Assembly (NCBI GenBank): GCA_964419225.1
Contig: CAYQPF010000035.1
Span: 1 to 36,014 of the forward strand
Origin: an uncultured Candidatus Cloacimonadota bacterium
GTDB lineage: Bacteria > Cloacimonadota > Cloacimonadia > Cloacimonadales > CAYQPF01
Reading direction: 5' to 3'
Length of the DNA stretch: 36,014 nucleotides
Shown piece by piece: positions 6,778-30,546 of this stretch. The notes beneath the pieces are model-generated. The model saw only the letters and a program-made list of their open reading frames with translations, did not search any database and was not told the origin of the DNA. How positions within the stretch are numbered: the stretch's first letter is position 1; every line of letters begins with the position of its first letter. The position numbers were made by a program, and so were the translations under genes.

Positions 6778-7109
6778 CATGAGGATAATTTCCGTTGTTA
6801 TTAAACAGTAAAAACTAAGAGGAGCTAAAGGGATGCTAAAGAGAAGCTAAAGAGGAGTGTCTAAAGTTCGGAGTCATAATTTTGAGTAGTTTCATAGGAG
6901 ATAAGAACTTTTAATCAGGCATTGCATGATTGTTTAGTATAGATGAAACTCTATTATTCAAGAATTGAGACCAATTCGCGGAGGATTTCCAAACAAGAGT
7001 TCTCCACTGTGTGACTCTGAGATTTCCTCTGTGTAACTTTGTGATACTAAAAAATTAATATTTTTATTTACATAATTTACAATTTCTACAACCTTAGTTC
7101 GGAGGATTT

Positions 7110-15240: not shown

Positions 15241-17694
15241 TTAAAACAATTTCTGCGGATTGGAGAGAATGCTTAAATACATTTTCCGGGAAGTACTCCC
15301 TTGAGAGTTTTGGGTGGAAGCTTTCAAACTGTATCTTGCAGGAAAAATACCCTGATCAAGAAAATATGTTTTTAAGGATTCCTCGAATTCAATTTTGGAC
15401 ACAGCTGCATTAGTCTCACTGACAACATTGATCCTCAAAAAATAGGTAGGATTAGTTCGCATGATTTTGATCACATCTTTGAACTTAGTCTGATAAAAAT
15501 CAGGTGCCGGATTGGTTAACTCGGGATAAGCAGAAATCGTATAATCATAAGAAAACAATCTGGTATTGGACAGGAAATAATATCCTGCTTTAATACTTCT
15601 GAAACTGAGGTATTTTTCATTCAGTTGGAAAGTCAATAAAGTAAGTTTGAACCCATCATCATAGTACAGATACAGATCTGACTGATTATTAAGTGAAACA
15701 AGAGAATCAGTCATAGGCAGGTAAATGGTTGAAGCTGATAGAGATTCCCCGAATTGATATACACAATCCCAAGCCGGGTAGTTCATCAGAATAAGGCTGT
15801 CAGTGACAATAGAAAAATCTTTGAGGTTATCCAACAAATTGACATAAGCCCCATTCGGGAGAAAACTGGATTTATTACCGTCAAAAGCAATCTCAGTAAC
15901 TTGTTGATTTTTCAAAACAAAGGACTTTTCGCTTTTTGTCAGTTTATCAAAGTAAGGTGCCATCAGTAAATAATTTTTGGCAGATAAGGCCGCTAATTTA
16001 TATGATTTGAAAACAGGATCAGAGAAGATGGGAATAACACGTTCGGTGAAATTAAACAATTGAGCATACTTTTTTTCTTTATTAAGAGCCCAGGCATAGT
16101 GAAGAGCAATTTGCTTTAAACTGTCAATAGTACCAGGAACAGAAGTTTGTAACTCTTGGAATAAGTCCACAATTTCACCGGATTTGCTTTCTTGCCGTAG
16201 TTTGCGGGCAAGTTCATTTTTAGCGGGATAATACAATTTATGGTAAGGATAATAAGCAATAATTTTACGAAGTGACTGGACCGCAAGGGTATCACTTTTC
16301 AGTTGCTGTGAACAACGGTATTTAAGCCAATAGCAATCTGCAGAAACAGAATTATCTTCAACACTACTGATAACTCCATCCAGAACCTGAATACATTTTT
16401 GGTATTCATTATTCTGGAAAAGCAGCTTCGCATTTTGCAAAGACATCTTCAACAAGAAATCCAGAGAATTGATTTCCGAACAGGACTTATTGATCTCATC
16501 TACAGTTTTTGTCAAATTTTTGGGGGAGTAGTTAAGTAAAGAAAGATAGCACTTGGCATAATTCTTATGTACAGCAAGTTGATTAGAGCTGAGAGAATTA
16601 AAAACATATCCGGCCTGAGCAAAATCACCTTGCTTGTAACATTGCTCTGCCCACATAAAGAGGACTTTTTCCTTCAAAGGTGTGTCTTTAAATTGATCTA
16701 GAAAAAAAGCATAATCTGCCAAAACAGGTACCTGCTTCGTAGAGCTGGTTTCCAATTTTTCGTATAATTCCAAGTCGAATTTCTGTTCAAAAGTGTAAAA
16801 CATAGAGTTCAAAGCAGATGCTTGAGGAAACTTGATACCGAACTGCAAATTAGGCTCCTGTTTAAAATCATTAATGGGAAAATCTAAAAGGATAGTTTTT
16901 CTAATCTGTTGCAGAATGGTCTGTAATTGACCTTCCAGTTTAATTTCACTGGAAAGGTTTGTATAAAACCCGTTAAACTTAAGGCACATTCTTTCCATTG
17001 TCGCAGTAGGTTTGGGAGCTATATCCAGAACATAGATAGATACATCTGAGTTTTTTAAAACACCAACCAGATCTTTATTGGAGACAGACGAACCATTATC
17101 TTCGCCATCAACAATGATAAAGAGATATTTATTATGAAATCGTGGTTGTTCATTAAGGTCTGCCACTGCCAGGACAAGTGCATCATTGGTATATGTTTTA
17201 TCTGTAAAAGAAGGAATATTGGCTATTTCTTTCTTTATTAAAAAAGGTGAATTGGAAAAGAATAATCTTTTACGGGTTATCAAGCTGGCTTCACTCTCGT
17301 TGATCCGGGAAATATTACGCCCATCTCCATAATCATAAAGAGACAGGTAAAAATCACTGCTAAGGCTGTCCTGAAAGGAAGTCAGAGCTTTTTGCACATT
17401 GGCATATTTATCCTTCATTGATAGTGAGTTATCCAGTACTATACTTATATTTTTTATCTCTGCAGTATTACCAAGAAATGCAGTTTTTTTAACAACTGTT
17501 CTTTCAGAATTAACTTCCAGAGTAATTTCTGACGGTTTGACTACTTTTATAAGTGATGTTTGGCCCGGAGTTAAATAAAGTCGATACAGGGAGTCTTGCC
17601 CTGCAAAAACACGTGTAACTTTATAAGGTTCGGTCTCTGCAGCAATTAAGCAAGCCCAAATGAAGAGAACAAACAACAGTATAATTTTTTTCAT
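15241..17694 (-). CDS. Secreted von Willebrand factor A (vWA) domain protein with a C-terminal TPR-like/helical region
   Basis: Signal peptide 'MKKIILLFVLFIWACLIAA'. MIDAS-type motif in 'ISIVLDNSLSMKDK...YLFIIVDGEDNGS'. The ORF is 817 aa. Its start overlaps the upstream gene as ATGA. Confidence 0.7.
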   Translation of the reverse strand: MKKIILLFVLFIWACLIAAETEPYKVTRVFAGQDSLYRLYLTPGQTSLIKVVKPSEITLEVNSERTVVKKTAFLGNTAEIKNISIVLDNSLSMKDKYANVQKALTSFQDSLSSDFYLSLYDYGDGRNISRINESEASLITRKRLFFSNSPFLIKKEIANIPSFTDKTYTNDALVLAVADLNEQPRFHNKYLFIIVDGEDNGSSVSNKDLVGVLKNSDVSIYVLDIAPKPTATMERMCLKFNGFYTNLSSEIKLEGQLQTILQQIRKTILLDFPINDFKQEPNLQFGIKFPQASALNSMFYTFEQKFDLELYEKLETSSTKQVPVLADYAFFLDQFKDTPLKEKVLFMWAEQCYKQGDFAQAGYVFNSLSSNQLAVHKNYAKCYLSLLNYSPKNLTKTVDEINKSCSEINSLDFLLKMSLQNAKLLFQNNEYQKCIQVLDGVISSVEDNSVSADCYWLKYRCSQQLKSDTLAVQSLRKIIAYYPYHKLYYPAKNELARKLRQESKSGEIVDLFQELQTSVPGTIDSLKQIALHYAWALNKEKKYAQLFNFTERVIPIFSDPVFKSYKLAALSAKNYLLMAPYFDKLTKSEKSFVLKNQQVTEIAFDGNKSSFLPNGAYVNLLDNLKDFSIVTDSLILMNYPAWDCVYQFGESLSASTIYLPMTDSLVSLNNQSDLYLYYDDGFKLTLLTFQLNEKYLSFRSIKAGYYFLSNTRLFSYDYTISAYPELTNPAPDFYQTKFKDVIKIMRTNPTYFLRINVVSETNAAVSKIEFEESLKTYFLDQGIFPARYSLKASTQNSQGSTSRKMYLSILSNPQKLF

Positions 17695-18422
17695 TTTATC
17701 CTCAGCAAAATATAGTCGGTCGTTTTTTCAATTCTAAAATACTTGCAGGTTAGTTTATTATTGCCGGCTATTTTATCAAATTGATTCAGCCATTCACCGG
17801 TGGAAATCGCTTTATCTTTGTTTGTATCAGAAGTTTTTAGAGCTTTAGTAGTTCTATAAACAGTTTGTCTTAAATAATAAAGTTGATCATCAAGAGATGT
17901 GCTTTGCACATCAGAACTTTGGGAATTGATAACAACGAGATACTTACCTGAGGTAAAGTCTGTACAAGAATATTCCTGCAAAAATTCTTCAGGAAGAGGA
18001 GATTTTCCGGGTGCTACGATAAATATGATATTATTGAACGCCGGACTGATCTTAATAAAATTCAAAAGATAATCCAAAGTCAGAGTGGTTTTGTATTCTG
18101 TTGCCAAAATACTGGATTCTCCACCAGATTTTTTTTCCCAGGCTCCTGCTAAAACACCACAGAAGAAGGAACTATCTGTTAAAGACTTGGAAAAATCCAG
18201 ATATTGAGAGAAAACATTTTCCTTGAGATTAATCTGGACTGAACGTTGGGGTGTTTGCTGAAAAGCTCCGCTAAGTATTTGAAGCAGTTCATCCTTGTTC
18301 GAGTCGAACCCTTTTGCTTTGAATTGATCATTACCTTCAGAGCTATGTATTAGCAAACTATAGTTTAACCCATTAAGGCTAAAACTGAGCATAAGGCAAA
18401 TTAAAATAATTATGGATTTCAT
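17691..18422 (-). CDS. Secreted hypothetical protein
   Basis: ORF of 243 aa with an N-terminal signal peptide 'MKSIIILICLMLSFSL'. It is translationally coupled by ATGA overlaps on both sides within the MoxR-vWA operon. Confidence 0.45.
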   Translation of the reverse strand: MKSIIILICLMLSFSLNGLNYSLLIHSSEGNDQFKAKGFDSNKDELLQILSGAFQQTPQRSVQINLKENVFSQYLDFSKSLTDSSFFCGVLAGAWEKKSGGESSILATEYKTTLTLDYLLNFIKISPAFNNIIFIVAPGKSPLPEEFLQEYSCTDFTSGKYLVVINSQSSDVQSTSLDDQLYYLRQTVYRTTKALKTSDTNKDKAISTGEWLNQFDKIAGNNKLTCKYFRIEKTTDYILLRIK

Positions 18423-20155
18423 TTTTTCTTTCCTTTACCGGCAGGAACGGTATTGGTATTCTCAATTTCCGGAGTGGTTACCACCGGAGCTTCTGCTGCT
18501 TTCAAAGCAGTTTCCAGAATTTTAATTTGATTTAAAAGTTCAAAATAGTTTTTATAATTTTTGAATTGTTCCAGCATCTTACCCGATTCAGGATCAGTTT
18601 GATTCATTTGAGACTGTAGATTTTGATACTTCTGCAGAACAGGTGGAAATTTCTGGTACAGTTGATTAAGCGGATTTTTCAGCAGAGGAACAGCATTAAT
18701 CTTTTCAAAATAAATCATGTCAGGATACAACAAAGAAAGATCTTTCAGAGTGTTCGTTTTTGCTTTGAGCTCTTTATTGAATTTCGGCATTAAAAAGGTT
18801 GTTAAATATTGCTGACACAGATTAAGACTATCCGGTACAAAAAGAACATTTACCGGATTTGCACTCCCCGTAAAAATATTATCTAACTGCCCATATAGAA
18901 GACCAGGGCTGTCAACAGATCCATAGAATATGATATTTACCCCATTAAATGGCTTTTCATTAATGCTTCGTAAAAGATTATTTACGGTAAAGGCAGACCT
19001 GTCATTCTTCAAAACAGTAGCTGTTTCAGTGACAAAAAGATCTCCACAGATAATCAGATTCAGGGTGTAATCTAAATTTGTTTCCATCTTGGATATCCCG
19101 GACAAATAGGTCTCCAAGGTCGCAGGACTTTCATATGAGTAAAGAATATTGGCATTTGCCTTCTGTCCTATTCCAGTCCATTGATTGGAAAACAGATCAT
19201 AAAAGAAGTTTGCCTTTTCTTCATATGCTTTGTTACCGTTAAAAATATAAGTATAGTTATTAGTATCCTGCTTCAAATCCATCCAGTCCTGAGGATAGCC
19301 CTGAACAATATTCTGCAGATAATAATTCAAACTATCTTCTAATGCATAGAAATCATTGTTTTTGGCAAAAGAAGAGTAAAAAAGCGAAAACGTATCTGTT
19401 CTTACTATTTCATAAATATCTTTACAGGAAAAAATAAAGTTGTTCAATCCGGGTTTAAGAATCAGGTTTTTCTTGAAGATTTTTTCCTTTGTTAAAGGCA
19501 ATTTCTCATTATTAAGAATAACCTCCTTCAAGGAGTATTTATGATTCACAGTAAAAGTCAGTTCTGCTGTAGGGGGAGTAAAACTTAAGATACTCGAGTT
19601 GAAGGTAACTTTTGGAGTTGGAAGATTGTTTTTGAATTTATCAGGGAAGTCGGTCATTAGACATTCTTTAATCAGAGAAGACATTTTGGAATTGGTTTGC
19701 TGAGAAAAGAATTGATAGTAAGCAAACAACATTTTGTAAATATCCGGCGAACGTCGATCAATTTTATGGATCAGATTCTGATAATATTTATCCTGATATT
19801 TTGTAAGCGAAAGCAAAGTTAAAAGGGAATCTGATGGATTTATTAAATAGGCCTGTGACAGATAATTGTAGGCCAAATCACTCTTTTCACACTGAAAATA
19901 AATAACACCCTTTGCCTTTAAAAAAACCGGTTGAGGTACAACATTATCCTCAAAATTACTCAGCTCCTGACTTGCCATGACCGGCATAAAATTGGCCAGA
20001 TAACTCTCCAGCAATTCTATTCGCAAAGCTATACTCTTAGGATTATAAAAGACTTTCTGATACAAACTGTCTAAAGAAGTCGCACTATTTTCAGCAGTCA
20101 ATAAGGTTAAAACTGAAAACAGTATTAATAATAGAATTATCTTTTTCATACTCAA
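18419..20155 (-). CDS. Secreted hypothetical protein with an N-terminal TPR-like region
   Basis: ORF of 578 aa. Signal peptide 'MKKIILLLILFSVLTLLTA'. The C-terminus is Lys-rich. ATGA overlap with the MoxR stop. Confidence 0.5.
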   Translation of the reverse strand: MSMKKIILLLILFSVLTLLTAENSATSLDSLYQKVFYNPKSIALRIELLESYLANFMPVMASQELSNFEDNVVPQPVFLKAKGVIYFQCEKSDLAYNYLSQAYLINPSDSLLTLLSLTKYQDKYYQNLIHKIDRRSPDIYKMLFAYYQFFSQQTNSKMSSLIKECLMTDFPDKFKNNLPTPKVTFNSSILSFTPPTAELTFTVNHKYSLKEVILNNEKLPLTKEKIFKKNLILKPGLNNFIFSCKDIYEIVRTDTFSLFYSSFAKNNDFYALEDSLNYYLQNIVQGYPQDWMDLKQDTNNYTYIFNGNKAYEEKANFFYDLFSNQWTGIGQKANANILYSYESPATLETYLSGISKMETNLDYTLNLIICGDLFVTETATVLKNDRSAFTVNNLLRSINEKPFNGVNIIFYGSVDSPGLLYGQLDNIFTGSANPVNVLFVPDSLNLCQQYLTTFLMPKFNKELKAKTNTLKDLSLLYPDMIYFEKINAVPLLKNPLNQLYQKFPPVLQKYQNLQSQMNQTDPESGKMLEQFKNYKNYFELLNQIKILETALKAAEAPVVTTPEIENTNTVPAGKGKKK

Positions 20156-21144
20156 CCAAGGGTTTTTAGTATTTTTTGGACAATATCCTGAGATTTGTAT
20201 CCCTCTGCTTCTGCAGCAAAAGAGAGAAGCAGTCTGTGTTGCAGAACGATCTCAGCAGAGCTGATCACATCTTCAACCGATGGTGTAAGTCGATTATCCA
20301 TGGCAGCTTTGGCTTTGGCAGCCAGAACCAGGAATTGAGAAGCTCGAGGCCCGGCACCCCAGTTAACCATACTCTTAACAAAGTCCGGTGCTTCAGGATT
20401 TGAAGGGCGGGTTTTTCTTACCAATTTAACAATAAAATCAAGAACATGCTCACTCACAGGAATATTCCGGATTGATTCCTGAATTTTTACAATGTGGGCG
20501 GCATCTGTTATCTTTCTCAATTCTGTTTTTTCTGAACTTGTAGTTTTTTCAGCTATCATTTTCTCAGTATCATAAGAAGGATAATCAATATAAATCTTAA
20601 ACATAAATCTGTCTAACTGAGCTTCGGGTAAAGGGTATGTACCCTCCTGCTCGATTGGATTCTGGGTCGCTAATACTAAAAATGGTTGATCCAAATTATA
20701 TGTCTGATTTCCTGCTGTAACCTGATACTCCTGCATAGCCTGCAATAGTGCAGACTGCGTCTTGGGAGGTGTTCTGTTGATTTCATCTGCCAGAATAATA
20801 TTAGCAAAGACAGGACCCTTGATGTATTCAAAATACCGTTTACCATCAGATTTATCTTCAGCTAAAATATCTGTACCTGTAATATCAGATGGCATTAAAT
20901 CCGGGGTAAACTGAATTCTGCTAAACTTTAGATCCATTACTCGAGCTAAGGATGATACTAAAAGTGTCTTAGCCAAGCCAGGGACTCCTTCCAACAAACA
21001 ATGCCCGTTACAAAACAAGGCACAAAGGAAATCCTCTATTACTTTTTCCTGTCCGTAAACAGACTTATTTATTTCCGAAATTATCTTTTTCTTAGTATCC
21101 TGTACTGTTTCCAGCACTTTTACGAAATCAGCGTTACTTTTCAT
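20152..21144 (-). CDS. moxR: MoxR-family AAA+ ATPase
   Basis: Walker A reads 'GVPGLAKTLLVSSLARVM'. Walker B/sensor reads 'ILADEINRTPPKTQSALLQAMQE'. The ORF is 330 aa, typical MoxR size. Confidence 0.9.
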   Translation of the reverse strand: MKSNADFVKVLETVQDTKKKIISEINKSVYGQEKVIEDFLCALFCNGHCLLEGVPGLAKTLLVSSLARVMDLKFSRIQFTPDLMPSDITGTDILAEDKSDGKRYFEYIKGPVFANIILADEINRTPPKTQSALLQAMQEYQVTAGNQTYNLDQPFLVLATQNPIEQEGTYPLPEAQLDRFMFKIYIDYPSYDTEKMIAEKTTSSEKTELRKITDAAHIVKIQESIRNIPVSEHVLDFIVKLVRKTRPSNPEAPDFVKSMVNWGAGPRASQFLVLAAKAKAAMDNRLTPSVEDVISSAEIVLQHRLLLSFAAEAEGYKSQDIVQKILKTLG

Positions 21145-22141
21145 TTTCTATTGCTCCTGTTTCTATAACATCAATAATTTTATAACCGGAATAACTGATG
21201 GCAATAAATCCCACCAGAATAATCAAACCGCCTGTCAATAAATGGGCAAAAGCCATGACAGCACTCACCATCGTTTTATCAAGTCCCAGACCTGCTGAGA
21301 ATACAATAATCATCACAAGTTCATTACTCCCGATTTGAGCAGGAGGATGTGGTATAACATAAGACAAATATATCAGGGTATATCCGAATAAAATCATAAA
21401 ATAATTGATCTCCTGATTAAATGCCTTGAACATAAACAGGAAATAAACACTATCAATACTGACAGCTAATAGTGTAAGAATAAGTAACTCCGGCAGAAGA
21501 ACGTAATGATTTTTGAAAATTGCAACACCTTCGACAAACAATTGCACAATATCTTCGTATTTTTTTTCGTATTTATAGGGGATATATTTACTCCAACGGT
21601 GGAGAAAAGCAATAATTTCATCTTTCTTTATTGCAGATAAAATCAAAATAGTAAATCCAACAAAAAATACAGCTATCAACATAATAATCAGAAATAATAA
21701 ATAATCCGATACATGTACATTAAGAAAAGGTAATAAAATTAAGACCAGAAAAATTGAAACTGAATCAAACATCTTGTCAATGAAAACAGAAGGTAGTGTT
21801 TTCGAAATAGGAACACCCGTAGTCTTTTTAACAAAAAAACTCTTTGCCAACTCGCCTGCTCGAACAGGGATCATATAATTTATAAAATTCCCTGCCATCC
21901 AAATCAAAAAGGTACGACCTGCACCCATCTTTAAATTCACAGAGAGAAGTTTATTCCAGCGTAAGGAGCGTACAAAGTATGATAATAAATACAAAAATGC
22001 TGCAATCACGACATATGATAGTTTTACACTCCGGAAATATGGCACAATATCTTTTACATCAATAAATTTAGACCAGATACCCAGAAAAAGAACACCGATA
22101 ATTAATCCCAGTATTACTTTCCAAATATTACTTTTTTTCAT
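21134..22141 (-). CDS. Polytopic membrane protein, flippase-like/UPF0104 (lysyl-phosphatidylglycerol-synthase transmembrane-region-like) family
   Basis: ORF of 335 aa with about 8 hydrophobic segments. The N-terminus 'MKKSNIWKVILGLIIGVLFLGIWSKFIDVKDI...SLRWNKLL' is typical of this family. It overlaps both neighbours. Confidence 0.55.
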   Translation of the reverse strand: MKKSNIWKVILGLIIGVLFLGIWSKFIDVKDIVPYFRSVKLSYVVIAAFLYLLSYFVRSLRWNKLLSVNLKMGAGRTFLIWMAGNFINYMIPVRAGELAKSFFVKKTTGVPISKTLPSVFIDKMFDSVSIFLVLILLPFLNVHVSDYLLFLIIMLIAVFFVGFTILILSAIKKDEIIAFLHRWSKYIPYKYEKKYEDIVQLFVEGVAIFKNHYVLLPELLILTLLAVSIDSVYFLFMFKAFNQEINYFMILFGYTLIYLSYVIPHPPAQIGSNELVMIIVFSAGLGLDKTMVSAVMAFAHLLTGGLIILVGFIAISYSGYKIIDVIETGAIENEK

Positions 22142-23237
22142 AGTTTTCAGGATTAGAAAATCCCTTTACTCCGATTAGCTTTTTAGGACAAATATCGTAA
22201 CAGTGCAAACAACGCAAGCATTTTTTACGATCAAATGTAAACTTTGCAGATATTGCTCCAACTGGGCATTCTTCAAGACATTTTCGACAATCCTGACAGA
22301 AGGAAATAGGTTCCAAAATCGGCCTCGTCCCAAAATAGCCTGTCTTGTAAAGAAAAGTATTAAAATGTACGGAAAATAATTTTTCGAACACAAAATCAAT
22401 TATATACAGACATCTGTAGGCAAACTGATAACCCTTACTTTGCTTTGGCAGTTCAAATTTATGTCTTTCAATATTCCCTTCGATTTCAATTGGTACATTA
22501 TTCCGAGCTAAGTTTATATAGGAAATATCTTTATAATCTACACCCATGAAATCGCAGGCAATTTTATCAGTTGCAAAGGGATCTAATCCTGCTATCAGAG
22601 TCATAGTCTTTTTCAAATTTCCATAAACCGCCCCATCACCTTCCATGGAATTGATAGCATCGATAATGGTTAAGGTTGGCTTTATAACCTTGTTCAGATC
22701 AGCCACAGCCGCATGAATCCCTAAACTATGCATCAATTTACGAGTGTCATGATGACAAAAACCCATCAGATTCTTCATCCCCAGAGTAACCTGGGTTATA
22801 ACGTGCGTTTTCAAAATCGGCACATTTACAATCTTATTTTCCAAAACTATTCTTGGGACTTTAATCTTTTTCAGTACAAAAGAATTGGGAACAGGTATGG
22901 TTATAAAATCCTTCTCTTCAGGAATAAATACTTCTATATCGTGTTTTTCTGCAAATTCCCAGATCTTCAAATAATTGAACACTTCGCGGGTATCAAATTC
23001 CATTCCCGGCATCTCACAGATTATAGGCTTACATCCCAGTGTCTGAAGTTTCTGCACGATAGCTTCCAGTAATCCAAGATTGGTCGTGGCACCCTTGGAA
23101 TTCTCTCTGGGTGCTACAAAATTCGGCTTTAGGATAACCCTTTCTCCACTCTTGAATAATTGAGTCCATTCTAATTTATCCAGAAAAGGATATATGTCCA
23201 GTTCATCCTTAAGCTTCTGTATATAAACCTTATTCAT
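22128..23237 (-). CDS. DUF362 domain protein with a C-terminal 2x[4Fe-4S] ferredoxin module
   Basis: Two CxxCxxCxxxCP motifs read 'CQDCRKCLEECP' and 'CLRCLHCYDICP'. The start is placed at the internal 'MNKVYIQ' ATG, because the longer ORF would overlap the upstream gene by about 100 nt. Confidence 0.65.
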   Translation of the reverse strand: MNKVYIQKLKDELDIYPFLDKLEWTQLFKSGERVILKPNFVAPRENSKGATTNLGLLEAIVQKLQTLGCKPIICEMPGMEFDTREVFNYLKIWEFAEKHDIEVFIPEEKDFITIPVPNSFVLKKIKVPRIVLENKIVNVPILKTHVITQVTLGMKNLMGFCHHDTRKLMHSLGIHAAVADLNKVIKPTLTIIDAINSMEGDGAVYGNLKKTMTLIAGLDPFATDKIACDFMGVDYKDISYINLARNNVPIEIEGNIERHKFELPKQSKGYQFAYRCLYIIDFVFEKLFSVHFNTFLYKTGYFGTRPILEPISFCQDCRKCLEECPVGAISAKFTFDRKKCLRCLHCYDICPKKLIGVKGFSNPENYEKK

Positions 23238-23241
23238 TGTC

Positions 23242-24072
23242 TCAATTGGGAACAAAAACATAGTATTTATGATGAGCCCAGAATTGCTTGAAGAAGTCCG
23301 GTGCTGCTTTTTCCAACCAAAAATACTGAAGCATTTTATCTTCAAAAAGAGGATCTTTGTCCCGATAAAAATCCATAATCGTTACTGCACTCTTAGGTTC
23401 ATCACTTGGGGGTAACTTAATCCCGAACTTAGCCACAAACTCCTCTTTAGGCATCCCGATATCCGGCCAGGGTGGACAATCAATGAAATTACTCAATATC
23501 AAATTCCAGCCCATACTTTTCATTATTGGTTTAAAACACCCAGGTGAAATATATTCTTCCTTTAAGGTCGATTGTAACTCTTTCTTCCCAAAATATTTCT
23601 GGGACAAATAACCTAAACCTGTTGTATTCGGAACACAAAGCACAATAACTTTCTTTGTAACCCTGTTCAGTTCTGCTAAAAATTGCGTAATATCTTGTAC
23701 AAACCAAAGTGCAGAGAAATTCCAGGAAAAATCTATACTTTTGTCAGGTAAATTAATATTATCGTAGTTTGTGTTATATTGAAAATTGGCTGAAAGATTT
23801 GTCTTCTTCCATTCTTCTTCCATTAAACTAATTCTTTCTTCATCATGATCAAGCAACGTAATATTCATTCCCTTCAGAGCTAAATTCATACTATTGATTC
23901 AACTCAGACCTGTAAAACCAAAACAAGGTGCCTCTAAGACAGACTCTACCTTGAAATTGCGGACAATCTTATTCAAAAAATGATTAATTATTACTCTTTC
24001 ATAGGAAGAGCCTAGACCCTCATCAGGATCAGAAAAATAGTTTTTCCAGATATTAACAATTGGAATGGCCAT
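23242..24072 (-). pseudogene. Class I SAM-dependent methyltransferase interrupted by a single in-frame TGA at 23899-23901. It is a nonsense-mutation pseudogene, an assembly error, or recoded.
   Basis: ORFs 23899..24129 and 23242..23889 are in the same frame, separated only by TGA-ATC-AAT-AGT. The joined sequence '...VLEAPCFGFTGLS*INSMNLALKGMNITLLDHDEE' reads like a methyltransferase motif I/post-I region. Confidence 0.6.
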
Positions 24073-25033
24073 TTTGCTCCTTATACCAATCAATAACTCT
24101 CTGAAAATCAGGTATTGTATGGCATTCATCTAACTTCAAATCAGCGTATGTATCCTCGGTATTGTAATCCCAATCCCGTGAGATCAATTCTATTCTGCTG
24201 GTCCACAATTCGTTCTTTAAAGCCTTGAAAAAAGTTTCACTCAAGCGAAAACAACTGTCAGATAACATAATATTATAATTCTTTTTCTTTAAGCCATCTC
24301 TGATAAAAGTGAACAAGTCTTTCAATATAACAGGTTCTTTATCTGCTAAATTATATGCTTTACCGACAGGAAGATCAAGTTCGCAAGCATTGACAAACGC
24401 CTGTGTTATCAAATCCACATTCGCCAAATGAATCTTAACCTCACTCATAGGCAGGGCCATCATATATTTATCTGTCAGTTTTGTCAGAGTATAAGGAAAT
24501 CCATAATCTCCTTCACCATATGTAATCGAAGGTCTCAAAACCACTGCATTCAAGCCAAGTTTCACCTTCTCCTGAATCATTTTTTCACATTCTATCTTAG
24601 TGATATGATAATAATTATCCCGTTTGAACGGAGTTGAATCATTCGCCGGGACGCTTTGCGGTATCGCTCCATACACACCGACTGAAGAGCAGAATATGAA
24701 TTTACTGTTGTTCTTCAGAGCGTTATCAAGCAATTTACCGGTTGCTTTGATATTGGCCAGAAAGTACGAAGACATGGGGAACCTTCTCCCGCCTCGCAAA
24801 GCACCAATATGCATAATAATGTCGAAGGAATTCTGATTAAGGTATTTCTCCAAACCAAAAACATTCTCCAAATTGATTTCTACCAATTGAATCTTATCTC
24901 TGTATTCTGCAATTTTCTGCAAATCAGAACCAGGTCGGACAAGCCCTGTTATCTCATAATCTTTTTCTATTAATTGCTTCAGAATGTGATGTCCGATAAA
25001 GCCATTGATCCCTGTTACTAATATTTTTTTCAT
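24053..25033 (-). CDS. NAD-dependent epimerase/dehydratase (extended SDR) family protein
   Basis: The Rossmann motif 'KILVTGINGFIGHHIL' and the YxxxK region are present. The start is set at 'MKKILVTG', adjacent to the cpsB stop, and the 24-codon upstream extension is rejected. Confidence 0.8.
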   Translation of the reverse strand: MKKILVTGINGFIGHHILKQLIEKDYEITGLVRPGSDLQKIAEYRDKIQLVEINLENVFGLEKYLNQNSFDIIMHIGALRGGRRFPMSSYFLANIKATGKLLDNALKNNSKFIFCSSVGVYGAIPQSVPANDSTPFKRDNYYHITKIECEKMIQEKVKLGLNAVVLRPSITYGEGDYGFPYTLTKLTDKYMMALPMSEVKIHLANVDLITQAFVNACELDLPVGKAYNLADKEPVILKDLFTFIRDGLKKKNYNIMLSDSCFRLSETFFKALKNELWTSRIELISRDWDYNTEDTYADLKLDECHTIPDFQRVIDWYKEQNGHSNC

Positions 25034-25034
25034 T

Positions 25035-25820
25035 CTATAATCCAAATAATTTCTTAAATAATGATTTTTTTGCTTCCGGCTGCTTCTTAAAGCGTTCCGC
25101 TCCAAAATAATTTACTTTTTCGTTTTTCAGCATCTTCATGGGATTGATTTCGGAAAGTAATTTAGCAGTATGATCATTGGTTTCACTCCGAATAGCTTCT
25201 ACTGCATCAACATAACTATAATCCTGTGTATGACAGTGAGTATCAGAACCTAAAAAATGTGCATATCCGTTGTAGATCATTTCCCAGGCAGTATCCTGAA
25301 TCTTCTTGCCATAACCACCCAACAGGCTTCCGGTATTGATCTGCATATAAATATTCCGATGAATCAGATCTTCTACTGCATAGGGATTATTAATAAATTC
25401 TGTATATCTTTCAGGATGAGCCAAAATCGGTTTATAACCCTGTTTTACCAGAATATAATAAATATCGAGCAAACCGTTGGGAAAACCATTCATACTGGTT
25501 TCCATAAGAATATAATTTGTATTATTTAAGGTCAGGTTTTCCTTGATAACATCCAAGTGAATATCTTCACTAAGAAATATTTCTGCACCACGGTAAAGTT
25601 CAATATTTATATTCTCTCTTTGTACTGCATCTTTTAATATCTGAAATTTCACATTTTGAATTTCCGCTGTATTATCATAAAATCCCTTCATGTAATGGGG
25701 AGTCAAAATTACACCTTTAATTCCCTCCTCACTCATAAACTTCAAATAATCTAAAGATGTATCCAGATCCGGAGATCCGTCATCAACATCAAACATAATG
25801 TGAGAATGTATATCAATCAT
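25035..25820 (-). CDS. CpsB/CapC-type PHP-family protein-tyrosine phosphatase (capsular polysaccharide biosynthesis)
   Basis: Diagnostic N-terminus 'MIDIHSHIMFDVDDGSPDL'. Further His/Asp metal ligands are seen in 'LTPHYM', 'LAHPERY' and 'LGSDTH'. The ORF is 261 aa. Confidence 0.85.
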   Translation of the reverse strand: MIDIHSHIMFDVDDGSPDLDTSLDYLKFMSEEGIKGVILTPHYMKGFYDNTAEIQNVKFQILKDAVQRENINIELYRGAEIFLSEDIHLDVIKENLTLNNTNYILMETSMNGFPNGLLDIYYILVKQGYKPILAHPERYTEFINNPYAVEDLIHRNIYMQINTGSLLGGYGKKIQDTAWEMIYNGYAHFLGSDTHCHTQDYSYVDAVEAIRSETNDHTAKLLSEINPMKMLKNEKVNYFGAERFKKQPEAKKSLFKKLFGL

Positions 25821-26572
25821 ATGCCATCCTTACTAATTTGTATTGCCTGAGCAAATTCACTGATTAATGCTTTATCCGGAGTGTTCTCGAAAACAGTCCC
25901 AATCACCACAAAATCTGCTCCGGCTCTTGCTTTACAAGCCGCTTCCTCAGGTGTTTTTATGCCACCCCCGACAATAAGAGGGATTTCAATATTATTTTTT
26001 ACAACGGTAATCATTTCTTCAGGCACAGAGTTTTTAGCTCCGCTTCCGGCTTCCAAATAAACCATTCGCATGCCTAAATACTGCCCGGCTAAAGCATGCG
26101 TCACCGCAATATCAATTTTCTTTCTGGGTATGGGAATACTGTGACTCATGTACTGCACCGAAGTCAAACTGTTGGATTCGATCAACAAATAAGCAGTACC
26201 AATACTTTCCAGATTATACTTTTTAATCAAAGGAGCAGAACGAACCTGTTCTCCTACTAATAATTCCGGATTCCTGCTGCTCAGCATACTTAATAAGAGT
26301 ATTGCATCAGCATATGGAGAAACGAAATTAAACAATCCTGGGAAGATTATTAATGGTATTTTTACCTGCTTTTTTATTTCTCTTAAACACGATTCAAAAT
26401 TATCATGGAGCATCATACTACCACCTATGAGAAGTGCATCTGCCCCACTTTCTTCGCAATCCAAGGCAAAATCTATAGCAGTTCCCTCGCTATGCTTATC
26501 CGGATCGATAAGACAGAAAAACCCAGTTCTTTTCCGGGCAATTTCTAAGAGTTTCTCATATGTTTTTATCAT
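25817..26572 (-). CDS. PcrB/GGGP-synthase family (geranylgeranyl- or heptaprenyl-glyceryl phosphate synthase) TIM-barrel prenyltransferase
   Basis: The ORF is 251 aa with 'FFCLIDPDKHS', 'LLIGGSMM' and a C-terminal 'LIVGGGIKTPEEAACKARAGADFVVIGTVFE' phosphate-binding block. An ATGA overlap joins it to cpsB. Confidence 0.8.
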   Translation of the reverse strand: MIKTYEKLLEIARKRTGFFCLIDPDKHSEGTAIDFALDCEESGADALLIGGSMMLHDNFESCLREIKKQVKIPLIIFPGLFNFVSPYADAILLLSMLSSRNPELLVGEQVRSAPLIKKYNLESIGTAYLLIESNSLTSVQYMSHSIPIPRKKIDIAVTHALAGQYLGMRMVYLEAGSGAKNSVPEEMITVVKNNIEIPLIVGGGIKTPEEAACKARAGADFVVIGTVFENTPDKALISEFAQAIQISKDGI

Positions 26573-26573
26573 A

Positions 26574-27404
26574 TTATTTACCTATCCACATTATTATCAG
26601 GATGAAAAACATATTCAGTTTCATCAAATTAGAGATATAATTCAAATTTTTCTTGGTAACATTTCTGTTCAAAAATAAGTAAGAGATCAACAAAGGCAAA
26701 ATGGTAAAAATATTGAGCAAATTAAAAGTCAGCATCGATATCATTCCATGCCAAAATAGAGAAAAAACACCAATACCCATCGCTAATATCAGCGTAAATG
26801 TAATCGAAAAAGTCCAAGTCTTTCCCATTACAATTGGTATAGTTTTTGCCCCCTGACTCATATCACCTTCCACATCTTCCGTATCCTTGATGATTTCCCG
26901 GATCAATGTATATGTAAAAGCAATAAATGAAATTGCCAGCGCATAACTGACATTATCATTGGCTATTGCCCCGTAAAAGAATGTCGAAGCTGCAGAATAT
27001 GCTATCAACAAATTACCCAACAAAAATGTCTTTTTCAAATATCCTGCATAGACCACTAACAGCAATGTATTCACAACTGCAATTATGATACACCATTTAT
27101 GCCAGGTCAAAACACTCAGAAAAAAACCGGTAATCATCAGAATCCAGGCATACTTTAAAGCCGTACCTGGTGAGATTTTACCAGAAGGTAAAACCCTGTC
27201 TTTTCTGTTTATCTTATCGATTTCCAGATCATAATAATCATTAAGTACATAACCACCTGCTGCTATAAAAGTGGCAGCTAAAGCACTTAAAATTATGACC
27301 CTGATATCAAAAACAGTTGCCTTGATCATTGCCCCATACACTACACATAAAGCAGTAAAAAAGCAATTGAAAGGTCTGATTATCTGCAGAAATGCTTTTA
27401 TCAC
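26574..27404 (-). CDS. UbiA-family prenyltransferase, DGGGP-synthase-like (digeranylgeranylglyceryl phosphate synthase homologue)
   Basis: Eight or nine TM helices. Asp-rich motif 'NDYYDLEIDKINRKDR'. It sits immediately upstream of the PcrB/GGGPS gene, which is the archaeal ether-lipid gene order. Confidence 0.7.
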   Translation of the reverse strand: MIKAFLQIIRPFNCFFTALCVVYGAMIKATVFDIRVIILSALAATFIAAGGYVLNDYYDLEIDKINRKDRVLPSGKISPGTALKYAWILMITGFFLSVLTWHKWCIIIAVVNTLLLVVYAGYLKKTFLLGNLLIAYSAASTFFYGAIANDNVSYALAISFIAFTYTLIREIIKDTEDVEGDMSQGAKTIPIVMGKTWTFSITFTLILAMGIGVFSLFWHGMISMLTFNLLNIFTILPLLISYLFLNRNVTKKNLNYISNLMKLNMFFILIIMWIGK

Positions 27405-28292
27405 TTAAGGTAATCTGTCCTTGATCATGGCGACAAATTCAACCAGTATCTCATTATTATCCATATTCTTGATCATTTTATAGGAATCTTCCAGGAGCTT
27501 TTCTGCTGTCTTGCGTGCCTTATCCAAACCCAATAAGGAAGAATATGTTATCTTATTATTCCGATAATCTTCACCTGGTTCTCTGCCTAAATATTCAAAT
27601 TCACCGATTTCATCCAATATGTCATCTATAACCTGATAAGCTAAACCTAAATTCAATGCATAATTCCCAATTGTGATGGTTATATTATCTTCCGCATCCG
27701 CCATTATGCAGGCCAAATCTGTGGCTGCCTGAAGCAGTGCACCCGTCTTCTTCAAATGAACATATCTCAACACATTGATTCTGACATTCTTGTCCGTCGA
27801 TAAAATATCAACAGCCTGACCACCTATCATTCCCCGTGTTGATACTGCCCGGCACATGGTATTGATGCAGCGTACTGCTTTTTCAGGTTCCTGAACCAAG
27901 GTAAGCATCTCAAATGCTTTGGTGATTAATGCATCCCCGGCAAGTATTGCCGTTGCGGGATCAAACTTCTTGTGGCAGGTCGGCTGTCCTCTTCTCTCAT
28001 CTGAATTATCTACACTCGGTAAATCATCATGAATCAATGAAGCTGTATGGATCATCTCCAATGCACAACCAACAGGCAGAACAGGATTCAGGACATTAGC
28101 ATTCTTCTTGCCTTTCAACATCTCATAAACAGCAAAAAAAAGAATTGGTCTAAGCCTCTTCCCTTCAGAAAATACAGAATATCGCATAGCCTCAAAAAGA
28201 CTTGACGGATTCTCTTTTACCGGAGTCAGATAACTGTCCAGAGCGTCTTCCAATATTTTTTTCCTACTATCAAAGTATTTTTGGATTAACAA
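27405..28292 (-). CDS. Polyprenyl diphosphate synthase (GGPP/FPP synthase, trans-IPPS)
   Basis: FARM 'LIHDDLPSVDNSDERRG' and SARM 'YQVIDDILDE' are present. The ORF is 295 aa. Confidence 0.85.
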   Translation of the reverse strand: MLIQKYFDSRKKILEDALDSYLTPVKENPSSLFEAMRYSVFSEGKRLRPILFFAVYEMLKGKKNANVLNPVLPVGCALEMIHTASLIHDDLPSVDNSDERRGQPTCHKKFDPATAILAGDALITKAFEMLTLVQEPEKAVRCINTMCRAVSTRGMIGGQAVDILSTDKNVRINVLRYVHLKKTGALLQAATDLACIMADAEDNITITIGNYALNLGLAYQVIDDILDEIGEFEYLGREPGEDYRNNKITYSSLLGLDKARKTAEKLLEDSYKMIKNMDNNEILVEFVAMIKDRLP

Positions 28293-28306
28293 ATTGCACC
28301 TCGCTT

Positions 28307-29335
28307 TTAAAGTGGTAAGGAAATTTTTGTGCCTTTTTTGGCAGATTCATACATCCCCAAAATGATTTCCAAAGACTTACGTCCCTCCCGACCATCTGTG
28401 TTTGCTTCTTCATGCCCCAGCAAAGTGGCTGCCACATTCCGGAGAAAACCGGTATGGCCATAACCATAAACACTTTGCGGATTGGTTGCGACATTTTCAA
28501 CCAATTTATCATCATCATCATAGTCCTTGAATTCCCAGTGCTCAATCTTATTCACTGCAATTCCTCCGACTTTGACTGTTCCGTTTTCACCCATTATTGT
28601 TATAGAGCCTTCCAGATTTTTGGGGAAAATATTCATCGTTACTTCCACATTTCCTAAAGCTCCGTTTCTGAATTTAATTATACCCATACCCTGATCCTCT
28701 ACTTCGATCCTATGGTTGGATGTTGTCGTAAATGACATAACTGACTCCACCGGTCCCATCAACCATTGAATCAGATCAAAATAATGCGAAGCCTGATTAA
28801 GAAAGGCTCCCCCGTCAAACTCCCAGGTTCCCCGCCATTTGGCCAAATCATAATAGGATTGAGGTCTGGCCCATCTGACTGTTACATTGGCAGAAAATAA
28901 TCTTCCGAATCTGCCTTTATCAATAGCTTTCTTTAAAAGCTGAATCGGAGAATTTAGTCTGTTCTGTTTAACTACAAAAAGACTAACCTGGTTTTGATCA
29001 CATGCTCTTATAAGTTCATCTGCAGACTTCAAATCGATAGCCATAGGTTTTTCACTTACCACATGGATCTTTCGTCTGGCAGCTTCAATTCCCATCTCAG
29101 GATGTAATCCACTCGGACTACAGATAAGCACTGCATCCATTTCTTCCTGATCAAGCATAAGTTTGTAGTCAATATAAGTTTTGTTGATCTTGTAGGTTTG
29201 TGCGGCTCTTTCTGCTCTTTCAGAAATGATATCTGCACAAGCTACAATTTCAGCTTCATCGATATTAGCAATTGCTTCAAAATGCTTTTCAGCTATTCTC
29301 CCGCATCCTATGAGACCAAATTTAATTTTCTTCAT
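28307..29335 (-). CDS. Gfo/Idh/MocA-family NAD(P)-dependent sugar (UDP-sugar) dehydrogenase
   Basis: N-terminal Rossmann 'KFGLIGCGRIAEKH'. C-terminal GFO_IDH_MocA_C-like region. It is adjacent to wecB. Confidence 0.8.
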   Translation of the reverse strand: MKKIKFGLIGCGRIAEKHFEAIANIDEAEIVACADIISERAERAAQTYKINKTYIDYKLMLDQEEMDAVLICSPSGLHPEMGIEAARRKIHVVSEKPMAIDLKSADELIRACDQNQVSLFVVKQNRLNSPIQLLKKAIDKGRFGRLFSANVTVRWARPQSYYDLAKWRGTWEFDGGAFLNQASHYFDLIQWLMGPVESVMSFTTTSNHRIEVEDQGMGIIKFRNGALGNVEVTMNIFPKNLEGSITIMGENGTVKVGGIAVNKIEHWEFKDYDDDDKLVENVATNPQSVYGYGHTGFLRNVAATLLGHEEANTDGREGRKSLEIILGMYESAKKGTKISLPL

Positions 29336-30414
29336 TTATCACTCTCTTTCAATAAATATTCTAAAATAAATTCCGCTGCCTTACCGTCCCCAAAGGCAGC
29401 ATTTTGTTCTGATGCTATCTCCTGGCAGGCTACAGCTTTTTTTATCTTTTCAGTATCTGCACCGCATATTATGTTCCAATTTCCGACTAAAGTTTCCACC
29501 CATTCTGTTTCATCTCGTAATGTTATGCAGGGTTTCTTTACAAAATAAGCTTCTTTCTGTAAACCACCGGAATCAGTCAGTACCTTAACACATCCATTCA
29601 ATAAAGCTAACATTTCCAAATATCCAACTGGATCAATCACTTTAATTGATTCAGACAGCTGAATCTTCTGCTCAGCAATATACTTTTTCGTCCTTGGATG
29701 TAATGGCAATATCACAGGAGCATCCAAAGTTCCCAACGCACCCAGAATACTCGAAAGTCTGGCCGGATGATCTGTGTTCTCCGCCCTGTGTAAAGTGGCA
29801 AGATAGTAGCTTTCAGGCAAATCATTAGTCTTATATAATTCCGGGTTACTCAGAATTTTATCCTGATAAAACAAAACCGAATCATACATTACATCACCGG
29901 ACAATACAGCATGCTCCAGCAGTCCTTCTGTTGTCAAATGCTGCATAGCTGTCTGAGTGGGTGCAAACAAAATATCACTGATCTTATCGGTAACAATCCG
30001 GTTGATCTCCTCGGGCATATTCCTGTTAAAACTTCTTAGACCGGCTTCTACATGTGCGACTTTCATATGCAGTTTCACAGCTGCCAATGAACCAGCTACC
30101 GTAGAATTGGTATCACCATAAATTACTACCCAATCAGGGTTTTCCTGCATGAGTACTTTTTCTATTTTGTCCAGCATTAATCCGGTCTGTTCTCCATGTG
30201 AACCTGATCCAACTTCCAGATTATAATCAGGCTTGGGGATATCCAGCTGTTCAAAAAATATGTCAGACATGTTCTGATCATAATGCTGCCCGGTATGTAC
30301 CAACACTTCCTGAATCTCAGGATGCCTTCCAATCACCCGGCTCAGGGTCGCAGCCTTGATAAACTGTGGTCTGGCTCCAATAATAGTCAGTATCTTTAAT
30401 CTATTTTTTTCCAT
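29332..30414 (-). CDS. wecB: UDP-N-acetylglucosamine 2-epimerase (non-hydrolysing)
   Basis: 'ILTIIGARPQFIKAATLSRVI', 'VHTGQHYDQNMS' and 'DSGGLQKEA' are present. The ORF is 360 aa. Confidence 0.9.
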   Translation of the reverse strand: MEKNRLKILTIIGARPQFIKAATLSRVIGRHPEIQEVLVHTGQHYDQNMSDIFFEQLDIPKPDYNLEVGSGSHGEQTGLMLDKIEKVLMQENPDWVVIYGDTNSTVAGSLAAVKLHMKVAHVEAGLRSFNRNMPEEINRIVTDKISDILFAPTQTAMQHLTTEGLLEHAVLSGDVMYDSVLFYQDKILSNPELYKTNDLPESYYLATLHRAENTDHPARLSSILGALGTLDAPVILPLHPRTKKYIAEQKIQLSESIKVIDPVGYLEMLALLNGCVKVLTDSGGLQKEAYFVKKPCITLRDETEWVETLVGNWNIICGADTEKIKKAVACQEIASEQNAAFGDGKAAEFILEYLLKESDK

Positions 30415-30511
30415 GCAATAACAAACCTATCTTTTATCTTATCTGTCAAGTATCTTCTTTGCAACAGCAGTATGCTTGCACAAATACTAACAGTACACAC
30501 GACGACTACTG

Positions 30512-30546
30512 TTAAAAAGGAGTCCCTATCCAAGGGATAAGGACTC
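30512..30546 (-). terminator. Putative intrinsic terminator downstream of the flotillin-like gene
   Basis: On the minus strand the hairpin 'gagtccttatcc-ctt-ggatagggactc' has an 11-12 bp stem with a 3-5 nt loop. It is followed by 'cttttt'. Confidence 0.5.

Follow-up and report, generated by a model that had tools for sequence, protein, structure and literature searches.

Positions 1 to 36,014 of contig CAYQPF010000035.1 (assembly GCA_964419225.1), referred to here as the window, contain an unbroken run of 14 minus-strand open reading frames (ORFs) extending from 30414 to 15241, identified from the ORF list and translations of the window. The run is built around genes for isoprenoid glyceryl ether synthesis and is read as one operon-like array of four modules of different evolutionary depth, in which a lipid would be made, tailored and flipped. 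The probability of this reading is put at roughly 70%. Module B (28292–25035) is the phylum-wide core and encodes a prenyl diphosphate synthase, a UbiA-family prenyltransferase resembling digeranylgeranylglyceryl phosphate synthase (DGGGPS), geranylgeranylglyceryl phosphate synthase (GGGPS) and a PHP-domain phosphoesterase. Module C (25033–20152) is a common accessory set comprising a paired short-chain dehydrogenase/reductase (SDR) and methyltransferase (MTase), the flippase-like protein PplT and a MoxR ATPase, with a rare DUF362 insert here. Module A (30414–28307) consists of two enzymes of the pathway to UDP-2,3-diacetamido-2,3-dideoxy-mannuronic acid (UDP-ManNAc3NAcA), of which the WbpB-like enzyme is found in about half of relatives and the WbpI-like enzyme here only. 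Module D (20149–15241) encodes a caspase-fold/TPR protein, a 243-amino acid (aa) protein and a von Willebrand factor A (vWA)-TPR protein, and perhaps extends to 11123.

A previous sequence-only reading of this DNA had described 14 co-directional genes, which is confirmed for every ORF from 30414 to 15241, and had joined them into a single envelope pathway. What holds of the latter is the cluster for lipid synthesis, tailoring and flipping, which is conserved as a gene set across the phylum. The families then proposed for GGGPS, UbiA, polyprenyl synthase, CpsB-like PHP, SDR, MTase, DUF362 with Fe-S motifs, LPG_synthase_TM and MoxR also agree with Pfam. The genes are listed below in their order along the minus strand, each with its junction to the following gene.

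29332..30414 (minus): WbpI/WlbD-type UDP-sugar 2-epimerase (Pfam Epimerase_2); 4-nt overlap (ATGA at 29332)
28307..29335 (minus): WbpB/WlbA-type Gfo/Idh/MocA NAD oxidoreductase, Gfo (Pfam GFO_IDH_MocA); 14-nt gap
27405..28292 (minus): short-chain trans-prenyl diphosphate synthase, resembling geranylgeranyl diphosphate synthase (GGPPS) (Pfam polyprenyl_synt); abutting, 0 nt
26574..27404 (minus): UbiA-family prenyltransferase, DGGGPS-like (Pfam UbiA); 1-nt gap
25817..26572 (minus): GGGPS, PcrB family (Pfam PcrB); 4-nt overlap (ATGA at 25817)
25035..25820 (minus): PHP-domain phosphoesterase, CpsB/YwqE family (Pfam CpsB_CapC, 178 bits); 1-nt gap
24053..25033 (minus): extended SDR of the NAD-dependent epimerase/dehydratase or 3beta-hydroxysteroid dehydrogenase (3beta-HSD) type (Pfam Epimerase; GxxGxxG and YxxxK motifs); 20-nt overlap (24053–24072)
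23242..24072 (minus): class I S-adenosylmethionine (SAM) MTase, disrupted by an in-frame TGA at 23901–23899; 4-nt gap
22128..23237 (minus): DUF362 protein with two 4Fe-4S motifs (Pfam DUF362 and Fer4), a sporadic insert; 14-nt overlap (22128–22141)
21134..22141 (minus): PplT/LPG_synthase_TM (UPF0104) flippase-like membrane protein (Pfam PF03706, 131 bits); 11-nt overlap (21134–21144)
20152..21144 (minus): MoxR-type AAA+ ATPase (Pfam AAA_3, 214 bits, and AAA_lid_2); 2-nt gap to the probable ATG start of P578 at 20149
18419..20149 (minus): P578, secreted, with signal peptide, TPR-like helices, Ig-like sandwich and caspase/metacaspase-fold domain; 4-nt overlap (ATGA at 18419)
17691..18422 (minus): P243, secreted 243-aa protein with no credible Pfam hit; 4-nt overlap (ATGA at 17691)
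15241..17694 (minus): vWA817, secreted vWA-TPR protein (Pfam VWA_2 weak, ANAPC3/TPR weak; precomputed PF00092)

Layout and boundaries of the array

Start codons were picked to agree with homologues before each junction was measured, and all 13 internal junctions fall between −20 and +14 nt. ATGA overlaps had been proposed at five sites and are found at four of these (17691, 18419, 25817 and 29332), whereas the fifth, at 20152, would be a TTGA overlap and depends on the use of a TTG start. The three longer overlaps are as previously described, with lengths of 11, 14 and 20 nt. The full co-directional run on the minus strand is longer than the 14 genes, spanning 33132 to 11123, with a gap of 171 nt before the first of them and 134 nt after the last. 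Two features occupy the 5' side.

30520..30546 (minus): intrinsic-terminator-like hairpin with a 12-bp stem containing 6 GC pairs, followed by UUUUU; it ends the SPFH/Band7 gene and forms the 5' boundary of the array
30415..30519 (minus): non-coding stretch and expected promoter region, with TTGACA at 30449–30444 and TAGGTTTG at 30429–30422

The hairpin at 30546–30520 has a folding energy (dG) of −23.5 kcal/mol and a z-score of −5.07, and none of 200 shuffled sequences folds as well. A terminator scan found it to be the sole strong structure of this kind in the 20 kb covered. Inside the array, terminator-like sites are weak (5–7 bp stems) and lie within coding sequence. A hairpin at 25080–25103 had been singled out as the element that might split the lipid genes from the MoxR half. 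Its fold is not significant (dG −10.1 kcal/mol, z −0.51, 65 of 200 shuffles folding as well) and it is not followed by a U-tract, leaving no functional-looking internal terminator in the array.

The probable start of transcription is in the 171-nt gap, behind the terminator of the SPFH gene. From reading of the sequence and motif counts, no confident promoter could be assigned upstream of the array. A TAnnTTTG motif, corresponding to the Bacteroidetes-type −7 element, lies 8 nt upstream of the first ATG. The window contains 50 such motifs against 43±6 expected and is not enriched, and no claim of a Bacteroidetes-type promoter is made from it. The window contains no Rfam family and no tRNA.

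Lipid core and accessory genes across Cloacimonadota

Related loci were collected in a scan of one genome per GTDB species, and tblastn with all 17 window proteins (E < 1e-6) was run on the best 80 of the 170 loci that matched. A gene was counted at its expected position when both its strand and its offset fitted, and the denominators are the loci that extend far enough to include it. GGGPS homologues at 57–67% identity all belong to Ca. Cloacimonadota. The 80 loci do so as well, except two labelled Armatimonadota, which are probably mis-binned, and three labelled 'uncultured bacterium'. Judged by these matches, the host is a member of Ca. Cloacimonadota. Loci with individual labels are given L numbers below.

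Conservation of gene order in relatives was one of the tests set by the sequence-only reading. Order is indeed conserved, but no match to the WbpI-like gene or the secreted trio was found in any of the 80 loci, and the full set of 14 is thus not conserved as a single unit. The SPFH/Band7 protein and the signal transduction ATPase with numerous domains (STAND) encoded on either side of the array are likewise found in 0 of 80. Within the conserved part, PHP has the tightest linkage to GGGPS phylum-wide, occupying its expected position in 75 of 77 loci, usually with a 4-nt overlap between the two genes. UbiA follows with 70/77 and the prenyl synthase with 68/75, then the SDR (57/71) and the MTase (52/70). 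PplT is at its expected position in 36 of 55 loci and anywhere in the locus in 47 of 55, while the corresponding values for MoxR are 33/54 and 42/54.

Individual loci illustrate both the compact and the rearranged forms of the cluster. L081 contains nine tightly packed genes from Gfo to MoxR, with a divergent HU gene upstream and a 195-nt gap followed by a MarR gene downstream. Two loci from Cloacimonadales (L082, L083) keep GGGPS-PHP-SDR-(MTase)-MoxR without having UbiA, the prenyl synthase or PplT next to it. A second clade (L089) displays a minimal four-gene operon of prenyl synthase, UbiA, PcrB and PHP, with the SDR and PplT on the other strand within ~7 kb. That GGGPS, PHP, SDR, PplT and MoxR remain linked after such rearrangement points to a functional connection among them, though it is not proof. 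As the ether-lipid trio is linked in many genomes to the phosphatase, SDR, MTase, flippase-like protein and MoxR, the linkage is not due to chance.

The GGGPS of the window passes the equivalog model TIGR01769 (215 bits vs 161.55) as well as NF003198 (288 vs 247). The adjoining UbiA protein, separated from it by 1 nt, has both Asp-rich motifs. In the prenyl synthase, a small residue at position −5 from the first DDxxD fits a predicted C20 product. PHP matches the PDB structure of YwqE (3qy6) with an E-value of 3e-33 and CpsB with 1e-22. It contains two HxH motifs, DIHSH near the N-terminus and SDTHCH near residue 195, with TPH and AHPER seen in the YwqE alignment. By analogy with the CpsB/YwqE family these motifs would be metal ligands. 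Glycerol-1-phosphate (G1P) dehydrogenase (G1PDH; EgsA/AraM), CarS and geranylgeranyl reductase (GGR) are all absent from the cluster. A G1P dehydrogenase hidden among the other genes was considered and is not supported, as Gfo is 51.9% identical to a WlbA-type enzyme and the SDR is found paired with the MTase without an adjacent GGGPS.

The SDR passes no NCBIfam model. The in-frame TGA of the MTase stands where all 49 aligned relatives have an invariant glycine, within the SAM-binding motif FGFTGLSGINS. TGA is an ordinary stop codon in the window, where it ends 11 of 27 genes. The TGA thus reflects either a nonsense mutation or an assembly error, and selenocysteine or recoding under code 4 or 25 was rejected since the site is Gly and not Cys. 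Exact look-ups, which do not settle between mutation and error, found the 215-aa MTase fragment and the neighbouring SDR in NCBI only, and the versions repaired with Gly, Arg or Trp were absent.

With the intact MTase of a relative as query, 745 family members were retrieved. Labelled members are mostly from Cloacimonadota, with some from Calditrichia/Calditrichaeota, and others lie on megabase-scale contigs of unidentified organisms. Outside Cloacimonadota the SDR-MTase pair was found in two genomes (L087, L088), with the MTase after an orthologous SDR. The SDR of the window is 48% identical to that of L087, a contig whose MTase is labelled Calditrichaeota by NCBI. At 8032–17811 of L087 the pair is surrounded by GT2 and GT-C (PMT_2) genes along with a polyprenyl synthase and a distant UbiA, and at 6450–12723 of L088 by GT2 and GT-C (TMEM260_N) glycosyltransferases. 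The arrangement looks like a lipid-linked glycosylation cluster. These contexts suggest that the SDR-MTase pair is a mobile tailoring unit tied to polyprenyl or lipid-linked chemistry, and not a G1P-forming enzyme.

Among the remaining accessory genes, DUF362 is found at the matching position in only two of the 80 relatives (L038 and L063). PplT passes TIGR00374 (101 vs 43.2). MoxR has a Walker B motif (ILADE), and a MoxR-type Walker A motif (GVPGLAKT) is visible in the translation. It is an ortholog, at 61–76% identity, of the gene that ends the lipid cluster in relatives, where a gap and a MarR-OsmC-thioredoxin (Trx) block or another unrelated gene follows.

In most relatives the region downstream of MoxR consists of a 65–350 nt gap and then recurring ORFs of ~150, ~141 and ~157 aa. 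The block after MoxR in L081 is annotated as MarR, OsmC and thioredoxin-like proteins, then DUF2147, with other loci matched by ORF size and order only. The MarR-OsmC-thioredoxin-like block is absent from the window, where the secreted trio stands in its place.

A pathway can be proposed from this gene set. Once geranylgeranyl diphosphate (GGPP) has been formed, GGGPS would attach it to glycerol phosphate through an ether bond, and DGGGPS would add the second chain to form digeranylgeranylglyceryl phosphate (DGGGP), both activities being known for homologues from the phylum. PHP would then remove the phosphate from geranylgeranylglyceryl phosphate (GGGP) or DGGGP, as happens to heptaprenylglyceryl phosphate (HepGP) in Bacillus. 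The exposed head group would be tailored by the SDR-MTase pair, a step disabled here if the TGA is real, and PplT would move the product to the outer leaflet. MoxR may act as a chaperone for the membrane machinery, and the DUF362-Fe-S protein would provide an occasional extra redox step. It is tentatively hypothesised that the phylum-wide operon makes a dephosphorylated, head-group-tailored isoprenoid glyceryl ether, which is flipped outward as a specialised carrier or donor lipid and is not a bulk archaeal-type phospholipid of the kind proposed so far. In this full form the proposal is unlikely.

Several observations weigh against reading the array as an operon that makes, tailors and flips a lipid. 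Co-transcription is inferred from spacing and the absence of predicted terminators alone, and promoter-like sites (77 vs 64±8.5 expected) are uninformative on internal promoters. The prenyl synthase passes only one subfamily model, FPPsyn NF045485. The best NCBIfam models for UbiA are DGGGPS families, but its 193 bits fall below their cutoffs of 269 and 296. Characterised PHP-family members (CpsB, YwqE) are protein-tyrosine phosphatases and not lipid phosphatases. Because the SDR-MTase pair also exists without GGGPS, it may act on a glycan or on some other molecule linked to a polyprenyl. The stop in the MTase means either that the full product may not be made in this genome or that the contig carries an error. 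Finally, conserved order within a single phylum can persist without shared function.

The last of these points underlies the main rival, that the cluster is frozen synteny in which only the prenyl synthase, UbiA and GGGPS serve ether-lipid synthesis. PHP would then be a protein-tyrosine phosphatase, the SDR-MTase pair and the Wbp enzymes would act on a glycan, and PplT and MoxR would be housekeeping proteins. The likeness of PHP to characterised tyrosine phosphatases fits this explanation, as do the glycosyltransferases that accompany the SDR-MTase pair in other lineages, the clear place of Gfo and the epimerase in a sugar-nucleotide pathway, and the lack of an obvious role for MoxR in lipid metabolism. 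However, PHP keeps its place beside GGGPS in nearly all loci, and GGGPS, PHP, SDR, (MTase) and MoxR keep their grouping in loci where DGGGPS and PplT do not adjoin it. The SDR and PplT also stay within ~7 kb of the core after rearrangement. Moreover, neither the window nor the annotated flanks of five relatives showed a bacterial tyrosine kinase (BY-kinase) that could partner a CpsB-type phosphatase. Frozen synteny is considered unlikely, though it is the strongest of the alternatives.

Genes at the two ends of the array

The first gene had been called a UDP-GlcNAc 2-epimerase (wecB), and it does pass the wecB equivalog TIGR00236 (313.6 bits vs a cutoff of 210). Its best PDB match is nevertheless 8sxv, the UDP-2,3-diacetamido-2,3-dideoxy-glucuronic acid 2-epimerase of Thermus thermophilus (E 7e-117), and with 394 bits against 8sxv compared to 143 bits against E. 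coli WecB the enzyme is far closer to the WbpI type. The second gene was previously described as a UDP-sugar dehydrogenase but encodes a Gfo/Idh/MocA enzyme and not a UDP-sugar 6-dehydrogenase. It aligns end-to-end with PDB 3q2k/3q2i (E 7e-111, 51.9% identity over 339 aa), which are taken here to be the WlbA UDP-N-acetylglucosaminuronic acid (UDP-GlcNAcA) 3-dehydrogenases of Bordetella pertussis and Chromobacterium violaceum. The title of entry 3q2k says 'oxidoreductase' only, and the WlbA references in PMC10622841 fit this identification. Gfo is thus probably a UDP-GlcNAcA 3-dehydrogenase by similarity. It lies at its expected position in 39 of 72 relatives, with a median identity of 73%, and the conserved cluster begins with it in about half of them.

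The epimerase and Gfo correspond to steps 5 and 2 of the five-step UDP-ManNAc3NAcA pathway (WbpA, B, E, D, I). Their genes overlap by 4 nt. In these matches they resemble the Wbp/Wlb enzymes (PMC10622841), but the window differs from that pathway in holding only the two steps. No Pfam domains of the WbpA 6-dehydrogenase, WbpE aminotransferase or WbpD acetyltransferase were found in the scanned window ORFs, and these three enzymes could be encoded elsewhere in the genome. No glycosyltransferase-family domain was found in the cluster or in any of the 26 window ORFs scanned. Since no glycosyltransferase is present, glycosylation of the lipid by the cluster, as the sequence-only reading had suggested, is not supported.

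The secreted trio at the other end has a different history. P578 has the caspase-like alpha/beta fold of clan CD, yet across 17 family members no invariant or near-invariant His or Cys of a catalytic dyad was found in residues 269–483. Its caspase-fold domain is thus probably without a catalytic dyad. Only 19 distant homologues of P578 were found among 1.84 billion representatives. P243 shows no similarity to P578. Its homologue in other contigs is the ~245-aa gene located after the counterpart of P578 (E 3e-8 against the copy in L084). For vWA817 a search of 5.8 billion proteins returned only the protein itself. The vWA family had been proposed for it earlier, and the Pfam match is weak. A metal ion-dependent adhesion site (MIDAS) motif, DxSxS (DNSLS), is present at residue 88. 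The gene lies two genes downstream of MoxR.

The order of P578 homologue (~580–600 aa), ~245-aa protein and large protein recurs in four distinct, mutually unrelated contexts on scattered metagenome contigs (L084/L085, L086, L090 and L091/L092). The vWA domain of vWA817 is homologous to 935–1011-aa vWA-TPR-OmpA proteins of L084, L090 and L091. In L084 the third gene encodes a 1011-aa TPR/OmpA protein, the N-terminal region of which aligns with the vWA domain (E 3e-10). The third gene of L090 and L091/L092 encodes a vWA-TPR-OmpA protein of 935–946 aa, and the L086 contig ends inside the third gene. The neighbours of the module are usually a TPR-CHAT protein or a CHASE2-cyclase, with unrelated ones in L086. 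No MoxR or lipid genes were seen beside the trio homologues, with several kb available upstream in L086, L090 and L091 and only ~1.2 kb in L084. Coding-strand GC skew also sets the trio apart, with values of −0.02 to −0.06 compared to +0.16 to +0.21 for WbpI through LPG_TM, +0.07 for MoxR and +0.14 for the STAND gene. Together these comparisons suggest that the trio is a separately conserved envelope module which landed directly behind MoxR in this lineage. One further gene lies downstream.

11123..15106 (minus): adenylate-cyclase-like/STAND NTPase/TPR protein, 1327 aa (Pfam Guanylate_cyc, AAA_16, TPR_12), 134 nt downstream of the trio

By analogy with the CHAT and cyclase neighbours elsewhere, the STAND protein is a possible partner of the secreted module.

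The sequence-only reading had also described a MoxR-vWA module. MoxR ATPases are classically paired with vWA/MIDAS proteins. It may be that MoxR was recruited here by the inserted vWA module, so that 21144–11123 forms a MoxR-vWA-caspase-fold-STAND signalling or conflict system apart from the lipid genes. This classical pairing, the 2 nt between the MoxR stop and the P578 start, the DxSxS motif of vWA817 and a weak match of MoxR to the bpMoxR model all point in that direction, as does the cyclase-STAND-TPR gene following the trio, given the TPR-CHAT/cyclase neighbours of its homologues. However, relatives carry an ortholog of this MoxR at the end of the lipid cluster with no vWA gene beside it, and the homologous vWA modules of L086, L090 and L091 have no MoxR in the available sequence. 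PADLOC gave no significant defence-system match for MoxR, the trio or the STAND gene, and a known defence system formed by them was rejected. Since MoxR is by ancestry a gene of the lipid cluster and the trio is independent elsewhere, the MoxR-vWA module is a juxtaposition, and recruitment is judged somewhat less likely than frozen synteny.

The original proposal, that all 14 genes form one dedicated pathway building, flipping and surface-assembling a glycosylated ether lipid through MoxR-vWA and the secreted proteins, can draw on translational coupling or near-coupling throughout and on the presence of sugar-nucleotide and ether-lipid enzymes, a flippase-like protein, MoxR and a MIDAS-bearing vWA protein, but is very improbable given the missing glycosyltransferase, only two of five Wbp enzymes, the absence of the 2-epimerase and trio from all 80 relatives, trio homologues seen without MoxR or lipid genes, MoxR in relatives without a vWA neighbour, and the distinct composition of the trio. 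The four-module reading instead treats the sugar-nucleotide genes and the vWA/secreted module as add-ons in this genome, which guards against over-reading the span as a lipid-glycosylation and assembly machine.

Other genes of the window were noted in passing. The SPFH/Band7 protein upstream of the array (30586–33132, minus, 848 aa) has an unusual architecture, with five or six ~60-aa internal repeats before the Band_7 domain that follow the pattern 'G.IGLVES.DG.PVP.GRIFA ... GQKGPQ...LPPG.YRINT.LF'. A 1.4-kb stretch without a long ORF holds what by eye are gene remnants at 33670–34092 (minus) and 34338–34514 (plus). Two split ORF fragments resemble T4-type (GH24) lysozyme ('EGLRLKPYRCTSGKLTIGVSRN...'), and a third ('DMHDNVWEWNWD') looks like a remnant of a formylglycine-generating enzyme (FGE)-sulfatase, which suggests pseudogenes near the cluster. 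Farther away, the window encodes an FGE-sulfatase and PEGA-domain protein (17–2212, plus) and a full-length bacterial serpin (5516–6670, minus; Pfam Serpin E 9e-108). The intergenic DNA upstream of the serpin contains two short tandem repeats (6749–6866), with periods of 14 and 22 and ~2 copies of each.

Comparison with known systems

The main bacterial case cited for "bridging the lipid divide" is that of Cloacimonadota, which are still uncultured and whose ether lipids have never been observed. Villanueva et al. 2021 (ISME J, PMC7852524) found GGGPS and DGGGPS co-localised in metagenome-assembled genomes (MAGs) of Cloacimonetes, an arrangement that among bacteria they saw in that group alone. 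Their GGGPS and DGGGPS homologues were active in E. coli, forming GGGP and DGGGP. CarS and G1PDH were missing, and bacterial CdsA and Pgs were proposed to complete the phospholipids. The present locus is of the same phylum and shares the orthologous GGGPS, the adjacent UbiA and the upstream polyprenyl synthase. The MAGs of that study, NIOZ-UU3 and NIOZ-UU4, are themselves among the related loci (L047, L075) and have the same order.

The earlier study covers GGGPS, DGGGPS and polyprenyl synthase, whereas the window adds the WbpI-like gene, DUF362 and the secreted trio. In the paper and its supplements the PHP, SDR, MTase, PplT, MoxR and Gfo neighbours are undiscussed, and 'operon', 'gene cluster' and 'synteny' do not appear in the paper text. 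A description of the extended conserved operon was not found in the literature searched, including other Cloacimonadota genome papers. Hence, co-localisation of GGGPS and DGGGPS is already known, while the extended conserved operon is apparently undescribed. The operon provides a concrete gene set to co-express and suggests an alternative to the CdsA phospholipid model, in which the lipid may be dephosphorylated, tailored and exported.

Compared to the archaeal diether pathway (G1PDH, GGPPS, GGGPS, DGGGPS, CarS, GGR), the GGPPS-like, GGGPS and DGGGPS-like steps are contiguous here. The pathways differ at the next step, where archaea pass DGGGP to CarS and the cluster encodes a PHP phosphoesterase.

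The MoxR end of the array recalls the Bacteroides aerotolerance (Bat) operon and RavA-ViaA, as an AAA_3 MoxR and a MIDAS/TPR vWA protein are encoded on one strand, two genes apart. Unlike these systems, there is no DUF58 gene here and the MoxR-vWA pairing is not conserved.

Flippases of the UPF0104/PplT family are known from operons for lipid modification (bioRxiv 10.1101/2022.03.11.483950; PMC12713373). In MprF, P. aeruginosa gpgSDF and E. coli clsB-ybhP-ybhN the PplT domain is encoded with lipid synthases or modifiers, which is also the case for the stand-alone PplT of this cluster. Those systems act on diacyl phosphatidylglycerol or glycolipids, whereas the enzymes here are predicted to make isoprenoid glyceryl ethers. 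Even for GpgF the flipping activity is unproven.

The closest parallel to the inferred logic of the cluster is the PcrB-YvoF-LhaT system of Bacillus subtilis. Bacillus PcrB makes HepGP, which is dephosphorylated and then acetylated (PMC9179154). The resulting acetylated heptaprenylglycerol (Ac-HepG) is a carrier lipid with a proposed use on the outer leaflet (PMC12345273). The PcrB-family product is thus dephosphorylated, tailored on its free hydroxyls and, as proposed, shuttled outward. The Bacillus system differs in having a single C35 chain without DGGGPS and in using the acetyltransferase YvoF rather than an SDR-MTase pair; no homologue of YvoF or LhaT was seen in the present cluster. If the carrier-lipid hypothesis is true, the Cloacimonadota operon would be a Gram-negative diether counterpart of Bacillus Ac-HepG, which would change the reading of the 'mixed membrane' of the Fibrobacterota-Chlorobiota-Bacteroidota (FCB) group in the lipid-divide debate.

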